64,000 nt of DNA from Candidatus Latescibacterota bacterium (GTDB lineage: Bacteria; Latescibacterota; UBA2968): contig OZ242010.1 in assembly GCA_965204745.1 (NCBI GenBank), forward strand, positions 4,192,001 through 4,256,000, given 5' to 3'. The number at the start of each line of letters is the position of its first letter. The first letter of the stretch is position 1. This document shows positions 20,788 to 39,456 of this stretch, piece by piece. The notes beneath the pieces are model-generated. The model saw nothing but the letters and a program-made list of their open reading frames with translations, was not told the DNA's origin and did not search any database. The position numbers and the translations under genes were made by a program.

Positions 20788-22371
20788 ATGAACGACGCAC
20801 AACAACCCATCAATGCCCTGCCCCAAGGGTATCGGCTCCAGGAATATGAACTGGTGCGCGTGCTCGGTTTTGGGGGATTCGGCATGACGTATTTGGGTTT
20901 TGACCACAACTTGGACAAAGCCGTGGCGATCAAGGAATATCTGCCTTCGGATATCGCCATCCGCACAAGCAATAACAGCGTCGTGCCGCAGGCGAGCGAG
21001 TTTCAAGGCGACTTTGAGTGGGGCCTGGAACGCTTTTTGGACGAAGCGCGTACCTTAGCCCGATTTGACCATCGCCATCTCGTCAAGGTGCATCGCTTTT
21101 TTGAAATGCACAACACGGCGTATATCGTGATGGAATACGCCGAGGGCGAGACTTTGTCCGAGTATCTCAACCGCAAAGGGGTGCTAACCGAATCAGAACT
21201 CAAGGCGATTCTGCATCCGATTCTCAAGGGCTTGGCGGCGGTGCATCGTGCAGATTTTCTGCATCGGGACATCAAACCTGGCAACATCGTCATTCGCGCC
21301 GAGGATCGCTCGCCTGTGTTGATCGACTTTGGCGCGGCGCGGCAAGCGGTGGGTGCAAAGAGCCGTTCTGTGACCTCCATTGTGACTCCGGGCTACGCGC
21401 CTATCGAACAATATGAAAGCCGGGGCAATCAAGGGCCTTGGACAGATATTTATGCGTTGGCGTGCGTGTGCTATCGCGCCTTGACCGACGATGTGCCGAT
21501 TCCGGCAATGGATAGGGTGCGCCGCGATCCGCTGATTCCGGTTTCGGATCGGTGCAAGGGCCGTGCGAGCCACCAATTTCTCGCCGCCATCGATCACGCG
21601 CTACAAGTAGATGAGACTGCCCGTCCGCAAACAGTATCCGAATGGCGCGCCGAGCTGGGCGACACGCCTGTTGATGTTCCGCCGCCGGTTCCGGCTCCGC
21701 AAATCTCGTCACCGTACGTTGTTGAGCATCCTGAGCCTGCACACGCTCAAGAACCGGTTAAGGAATACAAGGGATTTAGCCGCGTGATGTGGATCGCCTT
21801 GGGCGTGCTTATGCTCGTGTTTATGGTCCTTGAAATTTCTGATTATGTTGAGGAACAACGCAAAGCAGAGATTGCACGCCAAGAGGAAATTGCGCGCCAA
21901 GAAGAATTAGCACGTAGGAGGGCAGAGGAAGCAAGAAAGGCGGAAGAAGCAAGAAGGGCAGAGGAAGCAAGAAGGGCGGAGGAAGCAAGAAGGGCAGAGG
22001 AAGCAAGAAGGGCGGAGGAAGCAAGAAAGGCAGAGGAAGCAAGAAAGGTTGAAATTCCCGATGCCAACCTTCGTGCTGTGATTGAGTACGAGTTGTACAA
22101 GGCACGCGGTGCGCCGATCACACGGGCGGACATGACGCACCTGACGCGGATAGAAGCGTCAGATGCGCGCATTAATGATTTGACAGGGCTTGAGTTTGCA
22201 ACCGGGCTGACAGGCTTAAGCCTTCCCTTCACCCAGATATCGGATATCGCCGCGCTATCGGGATTAACCAACCTGATATCGTTAGACCTTTACGACAACC
22301 CGTTGAGTGCCACATCAATCAACACGCACATTCCGGCCCTTCGGGCCAGAGGGGTTTCGGTGGATTTTTAG
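20788..22371 (+). CDS. Hanks-type Ser/Thr kinase with TM helix, charged helical stalk and C-terminal LRR
   Basis: Motifs LGFGGFG.TY, AIKE, HRDIKPGN, DFG, TPGYAPIEQ; TM; (AEEAR[R/K]) repeats; IPDANLR and LTGLEFATGLTGLSL LRRs. Confidence 0.9.
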   Translation: MNDAQQPINALPQGYRLQEYELVRVLGFGGFGMTYLGFDHNLDKAVAIKEYLPSDIAIRTSNNSVVPQASEFQGDFEWGLERFLDEARTLARFDHRHLVKVHRFFEMHNTAYIVMEYAEGETLSEYLNRKGVLTESELKAILHPILKGLAAVHRADFLHRDIKPGNIVIRAEDRSPVLIDFGAARQAVGAKSRSVTSIVTPGYAPIEQYESRGNQGPWTDIYALACVCYRALTDDVPIPAMDRVRRDPLIPVSDRCKGRASHQFLAAIDHALQVDETARPQTVSEWRAELGDTPVDVPPPVPAPQISSPYVVEHPEPAHAQEPVKEYKGFSRVMWIALGVLMLVFMVLEISDYVEEQRKAEIARQEEIARQEELARRRAEEARKAEEARRAEEARRAEEARRAEEARRAEEARKAEEARKVEIPDANLRAVIEYELYKARGAPITRADMTHLTRIEASDARINDLTGLEFATGLTGLSLPFTQISDIAALSGLTNLISLDLYDNPLSATSINTHIPALRARGVSVDF

Positions 22372-22473: not shown

Positions 22474-24915
22474 ATGAATTTCGATCACTTCATCACACAG
22501 GTTCGCCGAGACTACGGATATGCGGGGCAGGTCGTGCATGTGGAAACCCTGCCCGCGCAAGACGCGCTGTTTGCCGATGATGACTGCGCGCTGCATCCGG
22601 CGATTGCCGATGCGTTGACGCAACAGGGCATTGATCGGCTCTATACGCATCAGGCCGAGGCCATGTCCGCACTGCGGCGCGGGGAACACATTGTGGTGGT
22701 GACGGCGACGGCGAGTGGCAAGACCTTGTGTTATCAGATTCCGACATTGGAAGCCCTGTTGGACGATCCGCACGGCACCGCGCTATATCTCTTTCCGACC
22801 AAAGCACTGGCGCAGGATCAAGCGCGGGGCCTGGCGCGGTTCGGCGACTTGAACGCGCAGTTGAAGTTTGCGATGGGGACTTATGACGGGGACACGCCGT
22901 CCAATCTCCGCAAGACATTGCGCGAGGAAGGGCGGGTGATTTTGAGCAATCCGGATATGGTCCACGGCGGGGTGTTGCCCAATCATCCACGGTGGGCGCG
23001 CTTTTTTCAGCACTTGCGCCTCGTGGTCTTGGATGAAATCCACACGTATCGCGGGGTGTTTGGCTCGCATGTCGCCAATGTGTTGCGCCGCCTGATGCGA
23101 ATTTGCGCGCACTACGGCGCGCATCCGCAAGTCGCGTGTTGCTCCGCGACCATCGCCAATCCCAAAGCACACGCCGAGGCATTGACCGGCAGGCCGATGT
23201 CCCTGATCGACCGGGATGGATCGCCGCGGGGCAAACGGCAATTCGTGTTCTGGAACCCGCCTTTTTTGCAGGGGTCGACGAGTGACCGGCGCAGTTCAAA
23301 TACCGAGGCGCGGTGGTTGCTCGCCAAACTCATCCACAACCGGGTGCAGACCATTGCGTTTGTGCGGGCGCGCACGGCTGCCGAGGTGCTCTACCGCTAT
23401 GCCCAAGAGGATTTGTCCCGCGTGAACCCGGTGTTGGCCGGCGCGATTCGGGCGTACCGCGGCGGGTACTTGCCGTCTGAACGCCGGGAAATCGAGCAAC
23501 TGTTGTTCGAAGGCGCGCTGTTGGGCGTGGTCAGTACCAATGCGTTGGAGTTGGGCATCGACATCGGCAGCCTAAATGCGGCGTTGATCGTGGGGTACCC
23601 GGGCAGTGTGTCCAGCATGTGGCAACAAGCGGGGCGCGCGGGCCGCTTGTCCGAGACGGCACTGGTGGTTTTCGTGGCGCACAACGCGCCTATCGACCAA
23701 TTTTTGATGCGCGACCCGGCCTATTTTTTTCGACAATCACCCGAACACGCGACTATCGATCCCGACAATCCGCATCTCGTCGTTGGGCATCTGCGCTGCG
23801 CGCTACGCGAGTTGCCCATCCGCGGCGAAGAGGGCGAGGTGATGGGCGAGTTCACGGGCGCGCTGTTGGAGATTTTGTCGGACGAGGGCATGGCGCGGCA
23901 GATCGACGGGCAGTGGTTTTACAGCCGCGGCGGGTACCCTGCCGCAGAGATGGACTTACGCAACATCGGCGAGCCGACCTATGCGATTGTGGCAGACGCC
24001 GCCGAAGGCCCGCAGGTGATCGGGGCCTTGGACGAAATCAGCGCGTTTTTTCAGGTGCATACGCACGCGGTTTATTTGCACAACGGGCAGACGTATTTCG
24101 TGGATCACCTCGACACAGCGCGCAAAATCGCCCGGGTAACTCAAAAGGCGTTGGACTATTACACGCAGGCGGTTGACGAGACGCGCATTGCCGTCAATGA
24201 CGCGGAGGTGTCGGGCGCGTGGCGCGTGAGCGAGGTGTGTTTTGGCGAGGTGTCCGTGTCGTCTTTGGTGACGATGTTCAAGAAGGTGAGGTTCGAGGAC
24301 CGCGACAGCATTGGGTGGGAAAATATCGACCTGCCCGAGCGCACACTCGATACCGCGGCCTGCTGGGTCGTGCCCCCGCAAGCAGGGCTGAATCAGTGCC
24401 GGCAGTACGGGCGCGTGCCATCCGAGGGCCTAAAGGGCATCGCCAATGTGATGGGCGAGGTATTGCCCCTGTTTGCGATGTGCGACGCGATAGATATCGG
24501 CACGACGGTCGAGAGTTCCAACACGGGCCGGCCCACGGCCTTTGTGTACGACCGGTACCCGGGGGGGATCGGGTTTGCCGAAAAGGCCCATGAGATGATC
24601 GAAGACGTGATGACGGCGTGTTGGATGGTGGTGTCCGAGTGCGAGTGCGACGAGGGATGTCCCTCGTGCGTGGGCGCGCCCTTGCCCCCCGGCGGCGATG
24701 GCAATACCCGAGGGGCCATTCCAGACAAAGAGGCCGCGCTCGTTTTGCTACACGCGATGTTGGAAAAAGAGCCTTATGTGCCGCGCCAGCCGCGCCGCGC
24801 GTTTTCCCGTGCAGGGGATGGCACCGAGCGGGTTCATGCGGCGATACCGGTGCGGCCCTTGGCGGCAAATGTCGAGGCGAAAATTCGGAAAAAAGTAAAG
24901 GGGTTTCGGCGATGA
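22474..24915 (+). CDS. DEAH-box helicase with DUF1998 Zn domain (Hrq1/SftH/MrfA-like)
   Basis: Motifs TASGKT, FPTKALAQDQ, DEIH, SATI.NP, TNALELGIDIG, QQAGRAGR, CEC..GCPSC. Confidence 0.9.
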   Translation: MNFDHFITQVRRDYGYAGQVVHVETLPAQDALFADDDCALHPAIADALTQQGIDRLYTHQAEAMSALRRGEHIVVVTATASGKTLCYQIPTLEALLDDPHGTALYLFPTKALAQDQARGLARFGDLNAQLKFAMGTYDGDTPSNLRKTLREEGRVILSNPDMVHGGVLPNHPRWARFFQHLRLVVLDEIHTYRGVFGSHVANVLRRLMRICAHYGAHPQVACCSATIANPKAHAEALTGRPMSLIDRDGSPRGKRQFVFWNPPFLQGSTSDRRSSNTEARWLLAKLIHNRVQTIAFVRARTAAEVLYRYAQEDLSRVNPVLAGAIRAYRGGYLPSERREIEQLLFEGALLGVVSTNALELGIDIGSLNAALIVGYPGSVSSMWQQAGRAGRLSETALVVFVAHNAPIDQFLMRDPAYFFRQSPEHATIDPDNPHLVVGHLRCALRELPIRGEEGEVMGEFTGALLEILSDEGMARQIDGQWFYSRGGYPAAEMDLRNIGEPTYAIVADAAEGPQVIGALDEISAFFQVHTHAVYLHNGQTYFVDHLDTARKIARVTQKALDYYTQAVDETRIAVNDAEVSGAWRVSEVCFGEVSVSSLVTMFKKVRFEDRDSIGWENIDLPERTLDTAACWVVPPQAGLNQCRQYGRVPSEGLKGIANVMGEVLPLFAMCDAIDIGTTVESSNTGRPTAFVYDRYPGGIGFAEKAHEMIEDVMTACWMVVSECECDEGCPSCVGAPLPPGGDGNTRGAIPDKEAALVLLHAMLEKEPYVPRQPRRAFSRAGDGTERVHAAIPVRPLAANVEAKIRKKVKGFRR

Positions 24916-26417: not shown

Positions 26418-27077
26418 ATGAAGTTTTTTATCGACACGGCCAGTTTAGACGCGATCCGCGAGGCGCAAGCCATGGGCGTGCTGGATGGCGTGACGACAAA
26501 TCCGTCGTTGATGGCGCAGGAAAAGGGGGAATTTGAGGATATTATCCGCGCGATTTGCGCGATTGTCGATGGCCCGGTCAGCGCGGAGGTGGTGAGCACG
26601 GACACCGAGGGCATGATCGCCGAGGCGCGCCGCAATGCAGCGATTCACGAGCAGGTGGTGGTGAAAATTCCGATTACGCCGGATGGGCTCAAAGCGATCA
26701 AGGCGTGTTCGGACGAGGGGATTCGCGTGAATGTGACCCTGTGTTTTTCCGCAACCCAAGCCCTGATGGCGGCCAAGGCCGGGGCGACTTATATCAGCCC
26801 ATTCATCGGGCGGTTGGACGATTTGGGGCAAGATGGCATGGAATTGATTCGCACCGTGCGCCAGATGTACGACAATTACGGATTCGCCACGCAAGTGCTC
26901 GCCGCGAGTTTGCGCTCGCCCAAACACGTCGTGGAATGCGCCCTCGCCGGCGCGGATGTGGCGACGCTCCCGCCCGACGTGTTGGGCAAGTTGCTCGCGC
27001 ATCCCCTAACCGACATCGGCTTGGAACGCTTCCTCAACGACTGGCACGCATGGCAAGCCGCGAAATCCGGGAGATAG
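26418..27077 (+). CDS. fsa: Fructose-6-phosphate aldolase / short transaldolase
   Basis: Motifs MKFFIDTA, GVTTNPSL, VVKIP, NVTLCFS, YISPFIGRLDD, LAASLR. Confidence 0.92.
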   Translation: MKFFIDTASLDAIREAQAMGVLDGVTTNPSLMAQEKGEFEDIIRAICAIVDGPVSAEVVSTDTEGMIAEARRNAAIHEQVVVKIPITPDGLKAIKACSDEGIRVNVTLCFSATQALMAAKAGATYISPFIGRLDDLGQDGMELIRTVRQMYDNYGFATQVLAASLRSPKHVVECALAGADVATLPPDVLGKLLAHPLTDIGLERFLNDWHAWQAAKSGR

Positions 27078-27328
27078 GCTATGACGCGGTACGAAACAAA
27101 GACTCAGAGAAACTGGGAGAGAAAGCAACAAGCATTCAAGGCAACACTGCGGCGTTGCAATGCCGTTGCACGCGAAGAATACCCCTGTGCTCAAATCTTC
27201 GTCAGTTCATTGGCCTCATCTTCTAATGCGTCTCGATAGTGCGAACGGGTTGACATTGGCCCCAAACCGCTCGTTGCGTGCGGCGTAGAGCCTATCGCGT
27301 GTCCTGTGGGGTTCGAGTTAAACGCCTG

Positions 27329-27508
27329 TTAAGGGACGGATACTGCACGTATTTTCGGCTTTTTTGCCAACTCGTTACGCAATGCACGAGACTGGTGCCG
27401 GTAGAACGCCAACCGCTCTTTTATCGTTCTGTCCTTGAGTTGCTCATGGTGTTCATCTCGAATACGGCGCACCATCTCAACCGCATCAAACGTTTTTTTC
27501 GCGCCCAT
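27329..27508 (-). CDS. Small 59-aa protein, probable antitoxin partner of the PIN gene (not in the ORF track)
   Basis: Manual translation MGAKKTFDAVEMVRRIRDEHHEQLKDRTIKERLAFYR...; overlaps the 3' end of the PIN gene. Confidence 0.65.
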   Translation of the reverse strand: MGAKKTFDAVEMVRRIRDEHHEQLKDRTIKERLAFYRHQSRALRNELAKKPKIRAVSVP

Positions 27509-27962
27509 AGTTGGTCACCTCGCGCGGAGAGTAAATCTGTAACGGTTTATAGCCAAGTTCCATGTTCACGGCGGTGAACATGCGTATCTTATCGAAGTGT
27601 ACAATGTGTTTGAAGTTCCAGCTAACCAATACATCTACTTCTGCGACCGAAGCCAAGGCGATATGCAACGCATCATCGAAAAAGTTGGTCGTCAGAATCC
27701 GCCTCTTTAGGTAGGTTTCAGCAAGTTGCACAGCTTCCACTGTGACGTTGAGAAATTCAGGATTCAGAGTCAAAAGTTTCGAGTAGATATCTCTAACAGG
27801 CTCAGGAGCATCTCGGATCTCTGCGTCAACGACTTCAGATACAACCGGCCTGAAGTTGCCCAAACGGAAATCCTTCATCAGCCCGTTTGACCAAGGGGCG
27901 AACTCATCGTCATGGGAGCCGCCAATGACAGAAGTATCAATATATACGCGCTGTAATTTCAT
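27486..27962 (-). CDS. PIN-domain (VapC-like) ribonuclease
   Basis: Motifs VYIDTSVIG, DDALHIA, LVSWNFKHIV, I.SPREV. Confidence 0.88.
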   Translation of the reverse strand: MKLQRVYIDTSVIGGSHDDEFAPWSNGLMKDFRLGNFRPVVSEVVDAEIRDAPEPVRDIYSKLLTLNPEFLNVTVEAVQLAETYLKRRILTTNFFDDALHIALASVAEVDVLVSWNFKHIVHFDKIRMFTAVNMELGYKPLQIYSPREVTNYGREKNV

Positions 27963-28028
27963 GTAGGCTCAATGTATGGCATCGGTGAGTTTCTGCCAAA
28001 GGCAACCGCGGAATGCAAATTAAAAGTG

Positions 28029-28913
28029 TTAGGGCATCAGGAGAAGAATCATGCGAATAAGAGCAAAAAGCCGATGAAAGAGATAATCGACATGCTCACT
28101 TTTGGCGAGTGGTTCTTGATCCGTTTCAGAATGGCGTATTTGGAAGCGATTGCCGATCTTCGTCAGTTCTTTGGCCTCCCTCTCCAATGATTCTCGGAAT
28201 TTGGGAGAGGATGGGCCGGCCGTGCGATCAAGGCGAGACGTGATCTGCGCCTTCTTGTCCGATCCGTCGCCCAGCGTCTTTAGCCGCTCCCACGCATCCC
28301 ATAGAGACTCTAAGGCTTCACGGCGTATTGCCTCGTCGGAGTCGGAAAATTTGCGCTTTGCCACATCCAACATACGATTAAGTTCAGCATCGCCCGTACT
28401 AAACTCAATCGAAGCAAGTTCCTCGCGTAGTACGGACGGCGCGAGTCGTTCGATTTCGCCTTGCCATGTGAGTTCGTAGGCGAGGCCGTTACGGCGAAAT
28501 ATCCGATTGATGTCATCTCGAAATTCGGCCTGACCGGCTTCGATATCGAAGTCCAGATGATCGTGCTTAAAAAATTCGTGATACCCGTTGCGGATGGACT
28601 TGCCAATACACCGCCAGCAGAACTCAATCATGTCGAGGATATCCAGGGTTCGCGGTGGCTTTTTATCCTCCCAAGGGTCATCCTCCTTTTCTTGCAAATT
28701 CGGGATATCGGCTTCCATAGCCAGTCTAAAGGCCCTTTTATCGGTACCGATAATTGCTCCACCATCCTCGCAAAGAATTGGATATTTTGCACCGAATGAA
28801 CCGTCATCAATCCGGGCCTGGATAAGAACCTCGATACCCTTCCATACGGGGTTGCTGATTTCTTCGTTTTCTCGGGGAGTTTCTCCTTCTTCTCGCTCAC
28901 TGAAATACATCAT
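28029..28913 (-). CDS. AbiJ-N-terminal-like domain plus HEPN-like C-terminal domain protein
   Basis: YFSER start; ILD.IEF and INRIF.RNGLAYEL segments; C-terminal LWDAWERLKT..IGNRFQIRH (Rx4H). Confidence 0.65.
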   Translation of the reverse strand: MMYFSEREEGETPRENEEISNPVWKGIEVLIQARIDDGSFGAKYPILCEDGGAIIGTDKRAFRLAMEADIPNLQEKEDDPWEDKKPPRTLDILDMIEFCWRCIGKSIRNGYHEFFKHDHLDFDIEAGQAEFRDDINRIFRRNGLAYELTWQGEIERLAPSVLREELASIEFSTGDAELNRMLDVAKRKFSDSDEAIRREALESLWDAWERLKTLGDGSDKKAQITSRLDRTAGPSSPKFRESLEREAKELTKIGNRFQIRHSETDQEPLAKSEHVDYLFHRLFALIRMILLLMP

Positions 28914-29338
28914 GAGATTATCCTCCTTGGTTTATGTCGCGTTTTTTTAGCGATTTTTGCGACAATACTATGAACGGGTTAGACAGCGGTGCTGTTATGA
29001 TTCTTCCTGACCGAAGGCACTGCCGCACCCGCCGAGCGATTGGTCTGCGGGTGCGGTGCGGAACGAATACCGCATGTATTTCTGTCCGTGCAGGGAAAAG
29101 GACAATTTATTTTTTTTTGACATTTCGTTGTCAACCCCTTTTCGCGCCCGCGGCGTAGGGTGCGTTTCTGATCCGCGGGACTGGAGGGATAGGCGGTGAT
29201 GACGTGCCCATCTCGTATTACGACCTTGCATTTGTAATCAGATTTGAAATGCTATTTATCGACCTGCTCAAGAATCACCTTTTCCATTATAGCCGTAATG
29301 CCCTCACGCAGTTCAACATGCCTACGTAGGAGCCGTCC

Positions 29339-30505
29339 CTACATATCCTTCTTTGCCTCATTGACTATGTAATCAATCGCTCCAGCCATCTCTTGACGGC
29401 GGGAGAATAATGTGCCATTCGGATTTACCAGTTTGGCATCCACTAGCAAGCCGTGTTCACTCTTGCGGCCTATCGAGGCTTTACGGATGAACTCTGCCAG
29501 AGGCTTCCAAGAATCATACTTATTCTCATTCATCCATAGATGGTAACATCCGGCAAGTACTCGAACAAACGTAACGTTATAGGCGAATGTTATGGCACGT
29601 AATTCAGGGATTTCCGGATTGTCTATCTCGCCGGACAGGAAGCCGCTATATTCCTCTCTGGTAGCAGGCATGAATTGGTCTGACCAGACACGGCAACGGT
29701 TGCATAGATCATCAAAGTTCTGCATCTGCATATAGTGTTCATTGAGATCTCGGCTGACACGTTTGCCATAGCCAACTGCCAAGCTCTTTAAGATTGTTGC
29801 CAGTTGATTGATGGCCAAGAGATGTTGGCTGGATGTAGCCACCGAGGAGCGTTCCATCTCCACTCTCCCCTTGAACACGCGACTATTATCGGCGAGCCAG
29901 ACTGCCACCCGGTTGAAAGCGTCGCGCTGGTCGAATCTTGTAACGGTGTTGCTTTCGATGCGCTTGGTCTTCGACGCGTCCACGAACATCTGCCGCAATG
30001 TCTTGATATCATCCTCTGCGTAGAGGACGACGGTCATTGAAGCTTTTCGCAATGATTCCAACTTGTCGGCACGCCGATCCGCATTCGATAGCTCGTCGAG
30101 AACATCTTGTATAGCGCGCCGTCGATGTTGACCGTCGAATATCCGCATGGTGTTGGCACGATTGGCACGGATACACAACTCACCGAAGTTTGGATTGTCC
30201 GACTCGCCTTGTTCATTAAGGTAAGGCTTGAACTCCAACGCGTCGAGCGCAATCCCAAGCATCAGTGCTCCCAGCAACCAATCGTCTTTTTCCGCTAGGT
30301 ATCTTTGAATGTTTCTCGCATGGCTGGGCGTAAGGCGGCGGTTGGCATCTCTGACCATGCTATCATCCACGCGCTGTGGTAGCAGGCCATCGAGCGTCTC
30401 AAAATCGAGTGCAAAATAATACACATCACGGCCACCCTGATGAAACCGGTGCGCGGGGACACGCAGACTGTATTGATTGTTTATAGGGCGTATGTTCAGT
30501 GCCAT
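29339..30505 (-). CDS. DGQHR-domain (DndB-like, ParB-fold) protein
   Basis: Motifs ANR.L..SHA..I..YL, IFDGQHRRRAI, RQMF.D; GGAGG RBS. Confidence 0.85.
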   Translation of the reverse strand: MALNIRPINNQYSLRVPAHRFHQGGRDVYYFALDFETLDGLLPQRVDDSMVRDANRRLTPSHARNIQRYLAEKDDWLLGALMLGIALDALEFKPYLNEQGESDNPNFGELCIRANRANTMRIFDGQHRRRAIQDVLDELSNADRRADKLESLRKASMTVVLYAEDDIKTLRQMFVDASKTKRIESNTVTRFDQRDAFNRVAVWLADNSRVFKGRVEMERSSVATSSQHLLAINQLATILKSLAVGYGKRVSRDLNEHYMQMQNFDDLCNRCRVWSDQFMPATREEYSGFLSGEIDNPEIPELRAITFAYNVTFVRVLAGCYHLWMNENKYDSWKPLAEFIRKASIGRKSEHGLLVDAKLVNPNGTLFSRRQEMAGAIDYIVNEAKKDM

Positions 30506-30540
30506 TTTCAAACCTCCAATTTTTTGTGGCGATAACTGAC

Positions 30541-32127
30541 CTAAGCGATGCTCGCTTCTGCCTGCTGTATGATGTAATTGATCGCTTGGACTACAGGCCC
30601 TTGTTGCGCGATTGGAGAAATGCCTCCGGGTGCAACCACGCCTGCGTCCACCAAGAGAGAACCTTTATTTATGCCCGGTTTCAGTGAGGCCCCCCGGAGA
30701 AAGTCTGCCAATGGTTTCCAATCGCGACCGTCTTTTATCCATTCGTGATAGCAACCGGCAAAAATCCGGATAACCGTGGCGTTATACGCCATAGTTTCGG
30801 CACGCTTCTCCGGGATGTCGGAGTTGTCAATCTCGCCAGCCATAAGATCGTTGTATTCAATTCGGGCAGCAGGCATAAAATCGTCGGCCCACGTCAAGCA
30901 ACGCTCGTACAGCGAGTCAAGGTCCAGCATGTATGCGTCGTTGCGATCCTTGCTAACACGACCTTTGTAGCCAACCTCTAAGGTTTTCAGTGTTATCGCC
31001 AATTGGTTGATGGCAATTATATTGTGACTACTCCTGGGAACAGAAACACGCTCCATCTCAACGCGCCTGACAAATAGGTCACTATTTTCCTCAATTTGCA
31101 ACGCGACCAGGTTGAAAGCGTCTCTCTGGTCGAATCTGGTTACTGTATTTCGTTCTATGGACCTGGTTTGTGCCGCGTCTGCGAACATCTGCCGTAGGGC
31201 ATCGATGTTGTCTTCGGCGTACAGCATGATGGGCAGAGAATCTTTTTTGAAGTCTGAAAGTTTTTTATTGCTCGCGTTATGGGAAAGAGTTTGGAGCGCG
31301 TCCTTGATAGCGCGGCGGCGGTGCTGGCCGTCGAACATCTTCATGCTATCAGTACGGTTGGTGAAAATAGTGAGTTCTCCTACGGAGGTTTCGGCATCAG
31401 AATCAGGCATATATGAATCGAAACTCACATCGTCCGGGGATATCCCTAGTAACAGCGTTCCCAGCAACCAATCGTTTCGGTTCTCCAGATATTCTTGAAT
31501 TTTCTTTGCGTGGCTTGGTGTCAGAGGGCGGTTAGCGTCCTTGACCACTCTATCATCCACGCGGTCAGGTAGCAGGTTATCGAGGGACTTAAGATCCAAC
31601 GTGAAGGCGTACACGTCACGTCCGCCCTGCCGGAACTTATGAGCCGGCGTCTTAAAAGGCATCAGCTCACTCCTGATATTTTCCACAGTTTGACTCCGCT
31701 TAGACTCGTTAATCTCCTTGAGCACGCCGGCAATGTCGGTTAAACGATCCACAGCGTACTCCAGTTCAATATCTTGGTTGCCGGGGTGCGACACCTTATT
31801 GCGTGCATCGGTAATCGCATACAGGGCCTCCAAAGGTTTGCTCCCGTGCTTAAAGGCATTGTGGAACACATCCCGCCAATAGACCTTAACAAGGTGCGGA
31901 AATTCATTGATGTCTATTGTCTCCTCAATGCTTCGGCCCTCGTGGAGGTTCTGTTCGAATTGGTTGTACTGACCATCTCGCAACACAGATCTTATGCAGT
32001 CTTCAACCTTTCTGCCGGGTACCCGCCTCAGGTAGCGGACGATGAAAGGCCTCATTGCATCTCGGTAAATGTCTAAGGCATCAACTACAGCCTTCTTGTT
32101 CGGACGCTCAATTATTGCCTTTGCCAT
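30541..32127 (-). CDS. Swt1-like HEPN domain fused to a DGQHR (DndB-like) domain
   Basis: N-terminal W.DVF...ARNKVSH (R109-x4-H114); C-terminal MFDGQHRRRAI; paralog of the downstream gene. Confidence 0.8.
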   Translation of the reverse strand: MAKAIIERPNKKAVVDALDIYRDAMRPFIVRYLRRVPGRKVEDCIRSVLRDGQYNQFEQNLHEGRSIEETIDINEFPHLVKVYWRDVFHNAFKHGSKPLEALYAITDARNKVSHPGNQDIELEYAVDRLTDIAGVLKEINESKRSQTVENIRSELMPFKTPAHKFRQGGRDVYAFTLDLKSLDNLLPDRVDDRVVKDANRPLTPSHAKKIQEYLENRNDWLLGTLLLGISPDDVSFDSYMPDSDAETSVGELTIFTNRTDSMKMFDGQHRRRAIKDALQTLSHNASNKKLSDFKKDSLPIMLYAEDNIDALRQMFADAAQTRSIERNTVTRFDQRDAFNLVALQIEENSDLFVRRVEMERVSVPRSSHNIIAINQLAITLKTLEVGYKGRVSKDRNDAYMLDLDSLYERCLTWADDFMPAARIEYNDLMAGEIDNSDIPEKRAETMAYNATVIRIFAGCYHEWIKDGRDWKPLADFLRGASLKPGINKGSLLVDAGVVAPGGISPIAQQGPVVQAINYIIQQAEASIA

Positions 32128-32773
32128 TTGGCACTAACCTCCATATCAACTTGTAGATCGCTGAAACTTGGGGAGTTGGTGGGTGGATAATCTGTAACAC
32201 CAACATTATCGAATTATGTTGCGCCTAAATCAAAGGGTTATTCTAATCTTTGTCAAGAGAAAAATAAAAAATAAAATAATCTGCTGTATAATTCTAAAAA
32301 CTCAAAGAGGGCTACCATTGACTTACTGTCTTGGACTTTTGGAAAAACCGATGATTTCGGCAGATTATTATTTTTTAATGTATTATGCCTATCTTTTTGA
32401 GACGGTCCATGACAAGTTCGCTATCGAGACTCCGTCACAGCACACAAAAAACGTCGACATTTTACCAGCGTCGCCGATTACCGAAAAAAATACCGCTCCC
32501 CACATCGAGAGAGCGGTATCTATGGCGTGCTCTGTGGCGCGTTATGCGTTCGCGGTTTTGTACGGCGCGGTGGCAAGTTGATTTGGTGGGGCAACGTCGC
32601 GCACGTACCGACACGGCGAATTTGTTGAGGCAGATCGCTTCGGACGCCCAAGCCCTCATCCAAAATATCCAAGCGGGAACCGCATGACACTCCCAGGCAT
32701 TGGAGGTCAAAGATCGGTTTCCGATGCATGGGTTCTCCTCGTGGTCATCAGCCACTTAGCGGAGGTTCTTCAG

Positions 32774-33058
32774 ATGAACGCAAGTCAAAAGACCATCGAC
32801 GCAAATTACACCGCTTTCCGAAAGGTGTTGCCCGAAATTATGCAACGGCAGGCAGGCCGTTTCGCGCTTATGCGGAACGAACAGATCGTGGACTTTTTTG
32901 ACACTGCGAGAGATGCGGTTACGGCCGGTGGACATCTCTATGAAGACGGTGAATTTTCAGTCCAAGAAGTGATGCGAGCACCGATCAACTTGGGGTACTT
33001 TTCTTTTTTGTTCGGCGACTGCATCAACGCATCTTTTTTCTGCCTTGCACAAACATGA
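32774..33058 (+). CDS. Small hypothetical protein (DUF5678-like)
   Basis: GGAGG RBS; NY.AF...LP.....G.FALM....IV.FFDT..DA...G pattern. Confidence 0.55.
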   Translation: MNASQKTIDANYTAFRKVLPEIMQRQAGRFALMRNEQIVDFFDTARDAVTAGGHLYEDGEFSVQEVMRAPINLGYFSFLFGDCINASFFCLAQT

Positions 33059-34451
33059 CGGATGGTGCCGGGCCGGGGTCGCACACTTCGTTGAAGGTGG
33101 CGGGTAAGGGTTGGTGGATCACGGCTTGGATGCGCGACCGTTGCAGGGCGACCACATCGGGGTGATCCGCGGCGATGTCGGTGTTTTCGTCTGGATCGGT
33201 TGCGAGATCGAACAACTCTTCTTTTGCTGGATCGTTCAAACTCACCGTGTAATTCCACTGATCATCGCGCACGGATGCGCGGCCCGTTGCCGGGCCATTG
33301 GCAAAACTCGCCCAGCCAATGACGACGTGATCGCGCACGGCCTCTGCATCGCCCGTCACCAGCGGCCAAATATCCACGCCATCCACCGCGCTGCACGGAA
33401 TATCGAGCAGGCCGAGCACCGTGGGCAACAAGTCGTGGGCTTGCACAAAACCGGAAACCCGCTTGCGAACCCCCGGATGCCGTACCATCCAATTCAGGCG
33501 CGTGTTGTATGGATGCAGGCGATCCGGCCCCTTGCCAAATTGCCCGTGATCCAAAACTTGCGTGCCGTGATCCGACAGCAACATCACAATCGTCTCGTCT
33601 TTCAACCCCAGCTCATCGATCCGATTGAGCAGGTGCCCCACCCAGCGATCTACCAGCGTGACCTCGCCAAAGTACAAGGCTCGAATCCGCGCCTTCTCCG
33701 CATCGCTCGCCCCCTCGCCCTCGTTCCCCGCGCCCGGGGAAATAAAATCCTTGCCACTCCAGTTGGACAAATAGCGATCCGCGTAGTCCCGCGGCGGATC
33801 CCAGGGTTCGTGCGGGTCAAAGGAATCGACCCACAGGAAAAACGGCGCGTTGTCCGCGTTCTCGGTCAGCCAATCCGCGGCGCGGCGAAACACCCGGGCG
33901 CAGCTGTAATCCTCCTCGCGCTGCCGAAATTTTTGGTTGAACAGGTATTGCATCAGCCCGGTGTGGCGGTCCCAGTTGATCGGCTCGCGCACATGCGGGC
34001 GCAGCAAGTGTTCAATCGCGTCTCGCGTGCCAAACCGCCAGTTGTCGTTCTCTTGCCCGCGGATGAAATCGTAGGTGACAAATCCGCGCGTGTAGTTCAT
34101 CGTGGGCTTGAACATGTGGTAAGTGTCTGCGACCAACCCGGTCAGGTACCCATTCGCCAGCAGAATTTCCGAGAGGGTATCTTGTTCCGGCGGGATTTTG
34201 TGCCAGCCTGGCGCGTGGTGCCAGTGCCCGCGCCGGTCGAAATTGTAACGCCACGGAAAGGTGCGGCGGCCCGTGAACAAACCGCGCCGGGTCTGCAACG
34301 TGGGTTGGCATTCCCCGAAAGCCCGTTCAAACACCACGGCCTCGGCTACAAACGCATCGAGATGGGGCGTTTCGACAAAACTCAGTTTTTGATTTGGGCC
34401 GACGATATCGGCGCGAAACGTGTCCAAGCAGATACAGATGACGTTCATCAC
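33024..34451 (-). CDS. Sulfatase family protein
   Basis: Motifs ICLDTFRAD, PT...RRGLFTGR, FDPHEPWDPP, SDHG, ELFDL..DPDE. Confidence 0.88.
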   Translation of the reverse strand: MMNVICICLDTFRADIVGPNQKLSFVETPHLDAFVAEAVVFERAFGECQPTLQTRRGLFTGRRTFPWRYNFDRRGHWHHAPGWHKIPPEQDTLSEILLANGYLTGLVADTYHMFKPTMNYTRGFVTYDFIRGQENDNWRFGTRDAIEHLLRPHVREPINWDRHTGLMQYLFNQKFRQREEDYSCARVFRRAADWLTENADNAPFFLWVDSFDPHEPWDPPRDYADRYLSNWSGKDFISPGAGNEGEGASDAEKARIRALYFGEVTLVDRWVGHLLNRIDELGLKDETIVMLLSDHGTQVLDHGQFGKGPDRLHPYNTRLNWMVRHPGVRKRVSGFVQAHDLLPTVLGLLDIPCSAVDGVDIWPLVTGDAEAVRDHVVIGWASFANGPATGRASVRDDQWNYTVSLNDPAKEELFDLATDPDENTDIAADHPDVVALQRSRIQAVIHQPLPATFNEVCDPGPAPSVMFVQGRKKMR

Positions 34452-38006: not shown

Positions 38007-38190
38007 CCTTCAAATCATAACATCTTGTAACAAATCGTAACAAATCGCACATGTTACGTGAATGCGAAAGAAAGTTGATTTGATAGACGCTTCACAGGGC
38101 GTGCGTCCACGCGCTTACAACCTCGTGTCCGTCTTACAGCACCTCCACGTCCGTTTAGCGACTCGGCAGGGCTTGCCGCGTCGTAGTGTT
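38007..38190 (-). ncRNA. Putative omegaRNA scaffold overlapping the tnpB 3' end and right end; guide would be the flank starting at 38006
   Basis: Positional inference from TnpB biology; hairpin-rich sequence after the NAAINL codons; 5' end approximate. Confidence 0.5.
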
Positions 38191-39283
38191 TCAAATTGAT
38201 GGCCGCGTTCAAATCGCGGTTGAGGACGAGACCGCAAGACAAGCAGACATAGTCGCGCTGTGATAAATCCATAGCGACTTTGCGTTGTCCACAGCCTGAG
38301 CATGTCTTTGTGCTGGCAAACCACCGGTCGGCTTTTTCAAAAGCCACGCCAGACCATTGGCACTTGTATTCAAGCATGCGAAGGAATCCGCTGATACCTG
38401 CGCGGTGGAACGCACGCGACAGGCTCTTGTTGCGGCGCATACCAGCAACATTCAGCGTCTCGACAATCACCTTGCCAACGGTCGTCGCTTTGACAATCGC
38501 GGAAGTGGCTTTGTGGTGAACATCGTCGCGGATGTTGGTGATGCGCCCAAAGATGCGCTGTCGTTGGTCATACAAGCGTTGCCTGCGGTTACTGCGTTGG
38601 TTCTTGCCATGCGTGTTCTTTGACCGCGCAAGGGCTTTGTCCACACGGCGCAACTTGCGATACTGCGTATCTATCGCGCCCTTGGGATTGTCTATCGTCG
38701 TGCCATCCGAATAGGTTGCCAGCGTTTTCAATCCCATGTCGATGCCGATGGTTTCTCCGTCGCGTTTATCGGGCGGCTCCTGTCCTGTATCGACAGACAA
38801 GCAGACAAACCATCGGCCATGCGTCTTGGTTACGGTGGCTTTGACAATCGCGCCATTAAACCGCAGACGCTCGGCCATCTTGACCCAGCCAATTTTGGGC
38901 AGAAAGACCTTTTTGCCATCCACCTTGACCGTACCGGGCCCGTTATCGGCTTGATACGCACGCTTGCCAGAACGCTTGCGGTGTGTCGGGAAGCGCACGC
39001 GCAGTTTCTTGTTTCGCCAGTTCTTGATGGCTCTGTCAAGGTCGTGGATGGCATTCTTGGATGCGTATTGTGACAACTCGCCAGACCATTCATACTCGGC
39101 CTTTTTGACCACATTGAACTCGCGCTTGAGCGTATAAAGCGACTTGAACACGCCTGTATCCAGGGCGGCCTTGAACGCATTGAGCGCGTGATTGTACACC
39201 ACACGCGCATAGCCACAATGCTTTGAAAACAGCGTTGCTTGGGCTTGCGGGTGCATCAGTGCAATTTTGTGCGTCTTGACCAT
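38054..39283 (-). CDS. tnpB: TnpB RNA-guided endonuclease
   Basis: HTH (G.ARVVYN.AL), LPKIGWVK, RuvC residues GIDMG / IVE.LNV / NRDLNAAINL, Zn finger CSGCG..CLSCG. Confidence 0.93.
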   Translation of the reverse strand: MVKTHKIALMHPQAQATLFSKHCGYARVVYNHALNAFKAALDTGVFKSLYTLKREFNVVKKAEYEWSGELSQYASKNAIHDLDRAIKNWRNKKLRVRFPTHRKRSGKRAYQADNGPGTVKVDGKKVFLPKIGWVKMAERLRFNGAIVKATVTKTHGRWFVCLSVDTGQEPPDKRDGETIGIDMGLKTLATYSDGTTIDNPKGAIDTQYRKLRRVDKALARSKNTHGKNQRSNRRQRLYDQRQRIFGRITNIRDDVHHKATSAIVKATTVGKVIVETLNVAGMRRNKSLSRAFHRAGISGFLRMLEYKCQWSGVAFEKADRWFASTKTCSGCGQRKVAMDLSQRDYVCLSCGLVLNRDLNAAINLKHYDAASPAESLNGRGGAVRRTRGCKRVDARPVKRLSNQLSFAFT

Positions 39284-39456
39284 TGACCTGTCCAATATAA
39301 AAATCCGCCGATGGTTGTATCCAAAGCAAGGCTTTGCCACCGGCGGAATCAAACAAATACAAAAATGGCCTTGCTTTTGGATACACACCTTAGACGACTA
39401 CAAACGACAAAAGATTCCACCTTTTTGTGCGATTTGTGATGATTTGTTACAAGATG

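Follow-up and report, generated by a model that had tools for sequence, protein, structure and literature searches.

The two genes described here, A and B, lie next to each other on the minus strand of a 64,000-nucleotide stretch of a Candidatus Latescibacterota genome (assembly GCA_965204745.1, contig OZ242010.1, positions 4,192,001 to 4,256,000). This whole stretch is called the window below, and positions are those of the window unless another locus is named. Gene A (30541..32127, minus) is an open reading frame (ORF) of 528 aa composed of an N-terminal Swt1-type HEPN domain, a DndB-like DGQHR domain of the ParB/Srx-like kind and a C-terminal all-helical domain. Gene B (29339..30505, minus), an ORF of 388 aa when read from its ATG, is a DGQHR paralog without HEPN; an alternative TTG start would give an ORF at 29339-30511 (minus). 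With the ATG of gene B assumed, the genes are separated by a 35-bp spacer (30506..30540, minus) carrying a GGAGG word at 30513-30517, 7 nt ahead of that ATG. A second GGAGG (32138-32142) stands 10 nt ahead of the ATG of gene A, within an AT-rich region (32128..32700, minus) that also holds promoter-like hexamers; these are candidates only, seven being observed where shuffled sequences give 5.8. A preliminary description, made from the sequence alone, had proposed a two-gene operon with a 35-bp gap and a GGAGG for each gene, and both ORFs and both GGAGG words are indeed found in place.

The same description had proposed paralogy across the DGQHR region, which is borne out together with the motifs it quoted. 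In BLASTP, residues 158-524 of A align with residues 16-387 of B at 53% identity (198/375, E 3e-136), and the relationship is still detectable in the DNA (70-73% over 217 and 144 nt), a likeness far beyond chance. Both proteins belong to the DndB family PF14072, with 135.4 bits for A (residues 161-390, 30958..31647, minus; E 3.1e-39) and 147 bits for B (E 9.3e-43) against a cut-off of 29.1, and to the DGQHR family TIGR03187, with 101.6 and 103.9 bits against 58.85. Neither a ParB helix-turn-helix (HTH) nor a ParB C-terminal dimerisation domain was among the Pfam matches of either gene. Judged by sequence, A and B are old paralogs in the DndB/DGQHR branch of the ParB/Srx fold.

Conservation of motifs was counted on 96 aligned A-type and 26 aligned B-type sequences. 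The DGQHR motif lies at 31318-31332 (minus) in gene A, where D266-A273 are invariant among A-types, and at 30122-30136 (minus) in gene B, where D124-A131 are invariant in 26/26 B-types; DGQHRRRA is thus fixed in the A clade and the B clade alike. The family motifs H-x-F-x-QG-x-R, ANR-x-LT..HA and FDGQHRRRA, as well as RQMF-x-DA, RFD..FN and NQLA, show at least 90% conservation in either clade, and only six columns are fixed differently between A-types and B-types. Gene B had at first been taken for a bare paralog; since it keeps every family motif, including DGQHRRRA, it is not a decayed copy or a decoy, and from their motifs both subunits look functional.

HEPN occurs on the first gene only, as had been proposed, and its RNKVSH motif is intact. 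Residues 17-139 of A (31711..32079, minus) match HEPN_Swt1 (PF18731; Pfam E 8.4e-7), and at 29.7 bits against a gathering cut-off of 27.5 the protein falls, marginally, within the family. The catalytic-type motif R109-N-K-V-S-H114 (31786..31803, minus), located in the A-type alignment, follows the HEPN pattern Rx4-6H as R109-x4-H114 with N110; R109, N110 and H114 are invariant in 96/96 A-types and present also in a divergent HEPN pair, locus L054. In fold comparisons with the AlphaFold2 (AF2) model of gene A, whose mean predicted local distance difference test (pLDDT) value is 79.6, residues 7-157 match best PbAbiF (8vz6_B; Z 8.7, root-mean-square deviation (rmsd) 3.5, 142 aligned) and second the C-terminal domain of yeast Swt1 (4pqz_A; Z 8.3, rmsd 3.1, 120 aligned). 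Other matches of this region include AF_0298 (Z 6.7) and the sacsin HEPN domain (Z 6.2), with unrelated helical proteins interleaved; a Z below about 13 counts as weak for helical bundles.

For residues 165-324 of A the nearest solved fold is SspE (6jiv_A; Z 6.3, rmsd 3.9, 132 aligned), a modest match, and the ParB-like PadC is also similar (Z 5.8). No solved structure is a confident relative of the C-terminal helical domain (best Z 4.0, with no HEPN protein listed), and the comparison of the corresponding domain of gene B with BrxU is not significant (Z 3.9). A conserved histidine is lacking from the Rx6H-like word of this domain in the A-type and B-type alignments alike, and an Atlas search with residues 250-388 of B returned DndB-family fragments only. 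The accessible part of PMC3632139 ascribes a HEPN domain to DndB, a statement that the C-terminal domain here, having no confident relative, neither confirms nor excludes for the DndB-like family. The AF2 model of gene B, built from a 26-row alignment, has pLDDT below 50 over most of residues 1-190. Sequence searches against solved structures gave no match for gene A at E<=1 and none for the 96-row profile at E<=10, and Foldseek with the whole gene A model gave none in the PDB at E<=0.001.

The pairing itself is conserved. A word-indexed search for A-type homologs gave 926 matches at E<=0.001; among the best 120 of these, 112 carry both HEPN_Swt1 and DndB, at 63-76% identity, and 867 matches at E<=0.001, 104 of them at E<=1e-30, came from a profile search of 1.84 billion representatives. 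Scanning one genome per species gave 29 loci besides the window, which were read by tblastn and ORF calls. In 25/29 an A-type gene has a B-type gene directly behind it on its strand, comprising 18 pairs with a HEPN-bearing A and 7 with a HEPN-less A; the remaining four are one locus with decayed fragments of both genes (L029), two with a single full-length gene and one with a single truncated gene. B lies downstream of A in all 18 HEPN-bearing loci, in the window and in L054. Across the 25 related pairs the genes stand 11-73 bp apart (median 47), and in 24 of them B is preceded by a Shine-Dalgarno-like word. The most widespread cluster of flanking genes, a UvrD-like helicase, reaches only 5/29 loci. 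A and B are therefore a conserved unit without any other conserved neighbour.

Quick maximum-likelihood trees, with support given by the Shimodaira-Hasegawa-like approximate likelihood ratio test (SH-aLRT) only, separate the A genes from the B genes (A clade 99) and unite the HEPN-bearing A genes in a subclade (98). The B partners of HEPN-bearing A genes form a clade at 98 and those of HEPN-less A genes a clade at 96, so that the A and B trees mirror each other, as expected under co-diversification. A tree extended by L054, by a HEPN-less pair from a metagenome (L051) and by extra solo genes leads to the same result; three solo genes fall in neither clade. These trees imply that the A/B duplication is older than the HEPN fusion and that both genes have been inherited and transferred together; the existence of HEPN-less pairs shows that the paralog pair is the core, to which HEPN was added in one clade. 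In one of the 18 HEPN-bearing loci (L016 5820-9116), the HEPN ORF (211 aa) is cut off from the DGQHR part by a DDE transposase gene (441 aa) on the opposite strand.

A complex of the two proteins was modelled. Its interaction prediction score from aligned errors (ipSAE) is 0.68 (runs 0.68, 0.71 and 0.66), whereas none of the three controls exceeds 0.00; the partners have a pLDDT of 77 or more, and 55% or more of the contacts recur between runs; the mark applied is passed by 58/80 solved complexes and 2/110 mismatched pairs, figures that are only a rough guide here because custom alignments were used. The confident interface is pseudo-symmetric and made up entirely of the ParB-like domains (A 161-322, B 17-180), with HEPN outside it, and takes in the QGGR, DGQHR and RQMFxDA motifs. 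The contacts of lowest predicted error join Tyr30 of B to residues 174-176 and 299 of A. A174 and B30 occupy one alignment column that contacts itself in the model, and this column holds Ala in 94/96 A-types, Tyr in 24/26 B-types, and Ala or Ser in the seven HEPN-less A-types. The model supports binding of A and B through their ParB-like domains, and the small-versus-large residue at the predicted pseudo-dyad fits preferential hetero-pairing. The heterodimerisation put forward in the preliminary description thus gains support from the model, which does not, however, distinguish it from homodimerisation.

The predicted dimer invites comparison with the ParB CTPase clamps, which have a related fold. 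ParB proteins engage through their N-terminal domains in an NTP (nucleoside triphosphate)-dependent manner, and the predicted A-B interface resembles this in its use of the nucleotide-binding domain and in the conserved motifs it contains. ParB is, however, universal whereas the cassette is patchy, and the cassette is a predicted heterodimer of paralogs.

The effector-like part of gene A seems to move between architectures. Over its first 156 residues, gene A shares 51% identity (E 9e-48) with the N-terminal part of a 1103-aa HEPN_Swt1-DUF499 protein encoded in the same genome (G000:C1:4764793-4768101; L049 6794-10102, minus), which adjoins an AAA_15/AAA_21 ATPase and whose HEPN module scores 43.2 bits with HEPN_Swt1. 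Similar HEPN-headed open frames, mostly of 1114-1124 aa, are held by seven relatives. On this sequence likeness, the HEPN module is a portable effector. On the B side, some of the top matches carry C-terminal extensions: Mrr_N (E 1.2e-12), HARE-HTH (E 3.5e-6), a weak KorB/ParB-HTH and, in three more, 130-320 aa without a Pfam match (P0124, P0137, P0123, P0121, P0134 and P0146 in all). Mrr_N and HARE-HTH are DNA-binding modules of restriction-type proteins. HARE-HTH is described, in the available portion of PMC10853773, as recognising DNA with modified bases. Such extensions point to DNA as a ligand of subunit B in some lineages.

The distribution of the pair is rare and patchy. It is present in 3/168 genomes of the window's phylum and in 3/61 relatives, both counts including the window's genome, and a 401-genome sample of the class that holds most loci gave seven matches, four of them pairs and three distant single genes. 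A scan of metagenome contigs yielded two loci only. In the tree, sequences carrying different phylum labels are interspersed.

In the window, the pair is part of a 5.9-kb island (27078..33023), defined by synteny and GC content (0.50 against about 0.58 in the surroundings), which carries a PIN-like gene, an AbiJ-like gene, B, A and a 124-aa ORF. The genes on either side (26418-27077 and 33024-34451) are adjacent in 5/5 examined genomes of the same genus that lack the pair, with gaps of 20, 20, 20, 265 and 688 bp; because the flanks are direct neighbours there, the island is an insert in a variable spot. No flanking direct repeats resembling attachment sites were seen. Counts of promoter and terminator patterns are near shuffle level, and a scan of the island for AbiF/ToxI-like RNA gave no Rfam family and no tandem repeat array. 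The AbiJ_NTD4 protein (28029..28913, minus; Pfam E 1.8e-14, PADLOC candidate defence family PDC-S32 E 3.5e-54, PHROG 20667) and the PIN-like protein (27486..27962, minus) are neighbours outside the pair. The latter has no Pfam match, and was recognised from Atlas feature matches scoring 0.98, to clusters named PIN or with PF01850 in about 20% of members. Both genes are absent beside the pair in the 29 other loci. Short direct repeats link 27195-27251, in the spacer downstream of the PIN-like gene, with 28156-28196 (41 nt, 80%), in the 3' part of the AbiJ-like gene, and with 28965-28980 (16 nt, 81%), at the upstream edge of that gene; they may be the remnant of an earlier copy.

The expected proximity to defence genes was found in a minority of loci. 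When the 124 flanking ORFs of the 25 pair loci were scanned with PADLOC (E<=1e-10), 13 matched; three of these, an oxidoreductase, an ABC-transporter ATPase and an HTH protein, were set aside, which leaves 10 ORFs spread over 8 loci. Thus 8/25 pair loci have a defence or candidate-defence gene within three ORFs of the pair and 17/25 have none that PADLOC recognises. The neighbours are HEC-02B, PDC-M44B/TumE, HEC-09, PDC-S62, a split CBASS-type cyclase (CBASS, cyclic oligonucleotide-based antiphage signalling system), PDC-S34, PDC-S26, PDC-S44 and a PD-T4-4_A-like ATPase. Three of these stand directly beside the pair: the CBASS-type oligonucleotide cyclase, in two split ORFs (L018 11512-12354), the PDC-S34 protein (L019 10350-11216, 382 bits) and the PDC-S26 PD-(D/E)XK protein (L021 3925-5289, 339 bits). 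Directly downstream of another pair, in 1/29 loci, lies a queuine tRNA-ribosyltransferase (L010 10797-11999; PF01702, 500.9 bits). DpdA is a homolog of this enzyme type (TGT, tRNA-guanine transglycosylase); the L010 protein looks like a housekeeping enzyme.

The UvrD-like superfamily 1 (SF1) helicase mentioned above (754-808 aa) adjoins the pair in six loci, i.e., the 5/29 and the metagenome locus L051, HEPN-bearing and HEPN-less alike. It lies downstream on the same strand in L001, L014 and L016 and upstream in divergent orientation in L021, L025 and L051. Its long N-terminal part is of no assigned kind, and its weak PADLOC matches to GajB are limited to the helicase core. As an obligatory third gene it was rejected, being found in only six loci and having no close homolog in the window's genome, where the best match (E 2.6e-6, 21% identity) is confined to the helicase core. 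Elsewhere in the window, a Ser/Thr kinase (20788-22368, plus) matches PADLOC mad6 and PD-T4-6 models at up to 176 bits and adjoins an 813-aa DEAD/DEAH-type helicase (22474-24915, plus) with partial BrxHI, SngC, DruE, DrmA and DpdF matches. A 444-aa ORF (38057-39388, minus) matches Cas12f/Cas12u-type models at 188 bits and probably encodes a transposon nuclease of the TnpB kind, not a CRISPR effector.

Among described systems, several share one or other of these traits. In SspE, GmrSD and BrxU, a DUF262 NTPase with a DGQ motif controls a nuclease; BrxU passes from dimer to monomer when it binds NTP, and the nickase of SspE is triggered by its NTPase, according to the accessible sections of PMC10952713. 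Like gene A, these proteins combine a DGQxR domain of the ParB/Srx-like kind with an effector that cuts nucleic acid. Their effector, however, is a C-terminal DUF1524 DNase, whereas that of gene A would by its sequence be an N-terminal HEPN RNase, and they are single proteins, whereas the cassette has two paralogous subunits and no link to phosphorothioate genes. Neither PF03235 (GmrSD_N) nor DUF1524 matched A or B in Pfam at E<=0.1, which places the pair outside GmrSD, BrxU and SspE.

By analogy, the closest functional counterpart among described anti-phage systems is PD-T4-2 of E. coli, which PMC10952713, in the sections available, lists with DUF262 and HEPN. It too unites a ParB-superfamily NTPase domain and HEPN in a small system, but with the HEPN family PF18735 and DUF262 in place of PF18731 and DndB, and no paralog pair is described for it in those sections. 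The PADLOC models of PD-T4-2 gave no match on A or B at E<=0.1, so the pair falls outside this system as well.

The claim that the architecture was unnamed holds in part. No PADLOC model of a named system matches the pair beyond partial DndB/DpdB matches, and the accessible text of the literature considered offers no name or description for a HEPN-DGQHR gene with a DGQHR paralog. The fusion itself is not new: Table 1 of Anantharaman et al. 2013 (PMC3710099), in the accessible part of that article, gives a Swt1-like HEPN-ParB fusion (Saro_3948, "mostly active") and a HEPN + DUF499 ATPase of the Ava_2192 type. The window's genome holds both kinds of fusion. The table gives the HEPN-ParB fusion alone, without a partner paralog or a conserved pair; plasmid NC_009427, in which Saro_3948 was sought, showed no HEPN_Swt1 match. 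On sequence grounds, the conserved, mobile cassette consists of known parts in a new arrangement and lies outside every named system tested.

Taken together, these observations are best explained by A and B forming a self-contained, horizontally mobile two-gene defence cassette of the abortive-infection type, built from a heterodimeric NTP switch and a HEPN RNase effector, a proposal whose chances we consider evenly balanced. A and B would pair through their nucleotide-binding domains into a pseudo-symmetric heterodimer acting as an NTP-dependent switch or sensor, probably on DNA, and in the window's clade subunit A would have gained the N-terminal Swt1-type HEPN RNase. HEPN RNases normally require two HEPN domains. 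With one per A-B heterodimer, the RNase would stay off until a trigger, either the NTP state or bound foreign DNA, unites two A subunits, and RNA cleavage would then halt the infected cell. The analogy with SspE, GmrSD and BrxU, together with the listing of PD-T4-2, is what suggests a stand-alone defence module. We infer A-B binding, from the complex model alone, and also NTP gating, DNA sensing, RNase activity and the defence phenotype.

A number of findings weigh against this proposal. Seven genome pairs and one metagenome pair are HEPN-less, so the HEPN RNase cannot be the general effector. The viral contigs scanned held no relative, and a search of plasmids yielded only DndB genes of about 24% identity. 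The 17 pair loci without a recognised defence gene count here too, as do the numerous housekeeping genes among the neighbours. The HEPN assignment exceeds its Pfam cut-off by a mere 2 bits, and, for a bundle of helices, Z values of 8-9 in the fold comparisons are modest. Just 2/6 of the clade-specific columns fall inside the confident interface, and the complex model cannot separate hetero- from homodimers: the two proteins are paralogs, and the test is passed by close cousins too.

Three other explanations, each of which we regard as unlikely, deserve consideration. The first, closest to the proposed cassette, makes A and B an obligate heterodimeric, NTP-gated sensor of DNA, in which dimers loaded on invading DNA would bring their HEPN domains together and so activate the RNase. 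The Ala of A and the Tyr of B at the modelled pseudo-dyad would enforce hetero-pairing and thus exactly one HEPN per dimer, DNA would serve as the template for HEPN dimerisation, and the Mrr_N or HARE-HTH extensions of B would read foreign or modified DNA in some lineages. We know of no description of DNA-templated HEPN activation or of such a use of the ParB fold. The contacts at the pseudo-dyad are those of a model, and this stricter version of the heterodimer strikes us as doubtful.

The second explanation, to our mind equally improbable, is a toxin-antitoxin or addiction pair, in which the HEPN toxin A would be neutralised by B within the heterodimer and the function would be stabilisation of the island or dormancy under stress, not phage sensing. 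It draws on the two-gene operon on a mobile insert, on A-B binding as supported by the complex model, in which a heterodimer would hold one HEPN, and on the toxin-antitoxin-type genes (HicB, TumE, PaREP1, DUF5615) that often neighbour the pair. The HEPN-less pairs speak against it, since they keep the A/B split and the mirrored trees, which implies that B predates the toxin domain. The preliminary description had suggested a paralog acting as antitoxin, but with seven of the 25 genome pairs and one metagenome pair lacking HEPN and showing the same A/B asymmetry, B did not evolve as a HEPN antidote. B also retains all putative catalytic and NTP motifs, which a mere decoy would not need, and in the model it touches only residues 161-322 of A and never HEPN. 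The natural separation of HEPN from DGQHR in L016, with B kept, carries no weight for or against a toxin-antitoxin role.

In the third, with similarly poor prospects, the real effector would be the ParB/Srx-like domain, through NTP depletion or DNA nicking, or a recruited helicase, with HEPN as a back-up co-effector and the two paralogs providing asymmetric catalysis or DNA recognition. The eight HEPN-less pairs speak for it, nuclease and NTPase activities are reported for ParB/Srx members in the accessible text of PMC10853773, and a 2024 Dnd paper, in the part available, calls fused HEPN domains co-effectors. The UvrD-like helicase adjoins the pair in six loci, three of them HEPN-less, but most loci and the window's genome lack it. 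No nuclease motif was found besides the family motifs, and the strict invariance of the HEPN motif argues that HEPN is used where it is present.

The relation to DNA-modification systems bears on a last explanation. The domain family of A and B is shared with DndB and DpdB (Pfam DndB, TIGR03187), and binding of ATP and GTP is reported for a DndB-like protein in the available part of bioRxiv 10.1101/2025.10.10.680097; tandem paralogs and the HEPN fusion are foreign to DndB and DpdB, and the cassette has no dnd or dpd partners. Both genes remain far below the equivalog cut-offs, with 66.7 (A) and 69.4 bits (B) against 328 for DndB (TIGR03233), and 33.8 (A) and 31.9 bits (B) against 300 for DpdB (NF041060), over the first third of that model only. 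The absence of dndACDE, pbe and dpd genes from the window, proposed at the outset, agrees with PADLOC: no dnd, pbe or dpd core gene was found among the 52 further ORFs of the window at E<=1e-8, the sole exception being partial, helicase-core DpdF/DpdJ matches on the 22474-24915 helicase, and the five island ORFs gave no dnd, pbe or dpd match at E<=0.1 save the partial DndB/DpdB matches on A and B themselves. As to INDEPENDENCE from DNA-modification systems, the window's genome is without a DndC match, and in place of a dndCDE association there is a lone DndD-like gene about 3.8 Mb away with its own DndB-like neighbour. Five other pair-holding genomes had DndC in 0/5 and DndD above cut-off in 0/5, and the 29 loci show no recurrent modification gene next to the pair. 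The cassette is independent of Dnd genes.

The distant genes of the window's genome form a Dnd/Pbe-like cluster on a single strand (G000:C1:384000-398000, L050). It comprises a protein resembling 3'-phosphoadenosine 5'-phosphosulfate (PAPS) reductase (281 aa), a DndB-like protein (477 aa), a phospholipase D (PLD) + superfamily 2 (SF2) helicase protein (766 aa), a DndD-like ABC ATPase (712 aa; 109.8 bits, below cut-off), a 183-aa ORF, a GmrSD_N protein (433 aa) and a Ser/Thr kinase. That A and B regulate such a distant Dnd/Pbe-like cluster in trans, in the manner of DndB, a repressor and ATPase of the dnd genes, or of DpdB, could be argued from their domain family, from the presence of this cluster and from the description of DndB as an ATP-modulated regulator (PMC10853773, in the text available), but it is highly improbable given that the cluster owns a DndB-like gene, that A and B score far under the DndB and DpdB cut-offs, that DndC and above-cut-off DndD are lacking from the five other genomes, that no modification gene recurs beside the pair, and that a HEPN RNase would be odd in a transcriptional regulator.

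The proposed defence cassette, if right, would matter in several respects. With its fixed pair of intact paralogs, the cassette is a naturally occurring system for asking what use a ParB-type NTP switch makes of asymmetry and by what means a HEPN RNase is silenced, and the solo genes, the HEPN-less pair, the HEPN pair and B with DNA readers form a natural series for comparison. The family comes mostly from uncultured Chloroflexota and other environmental lineages, whose defence repertoires are undersampled by E. coli-based screens. To our knowledge, the DndB branch has so far been known only as an accessory to DNA-modification systems. If protection from phages holds true, the pair would be a new compact two-gene system on the DndB branch of the ParB fold, and this branch would be able to act alone, without phosphorothioate or deazaguanine marks.

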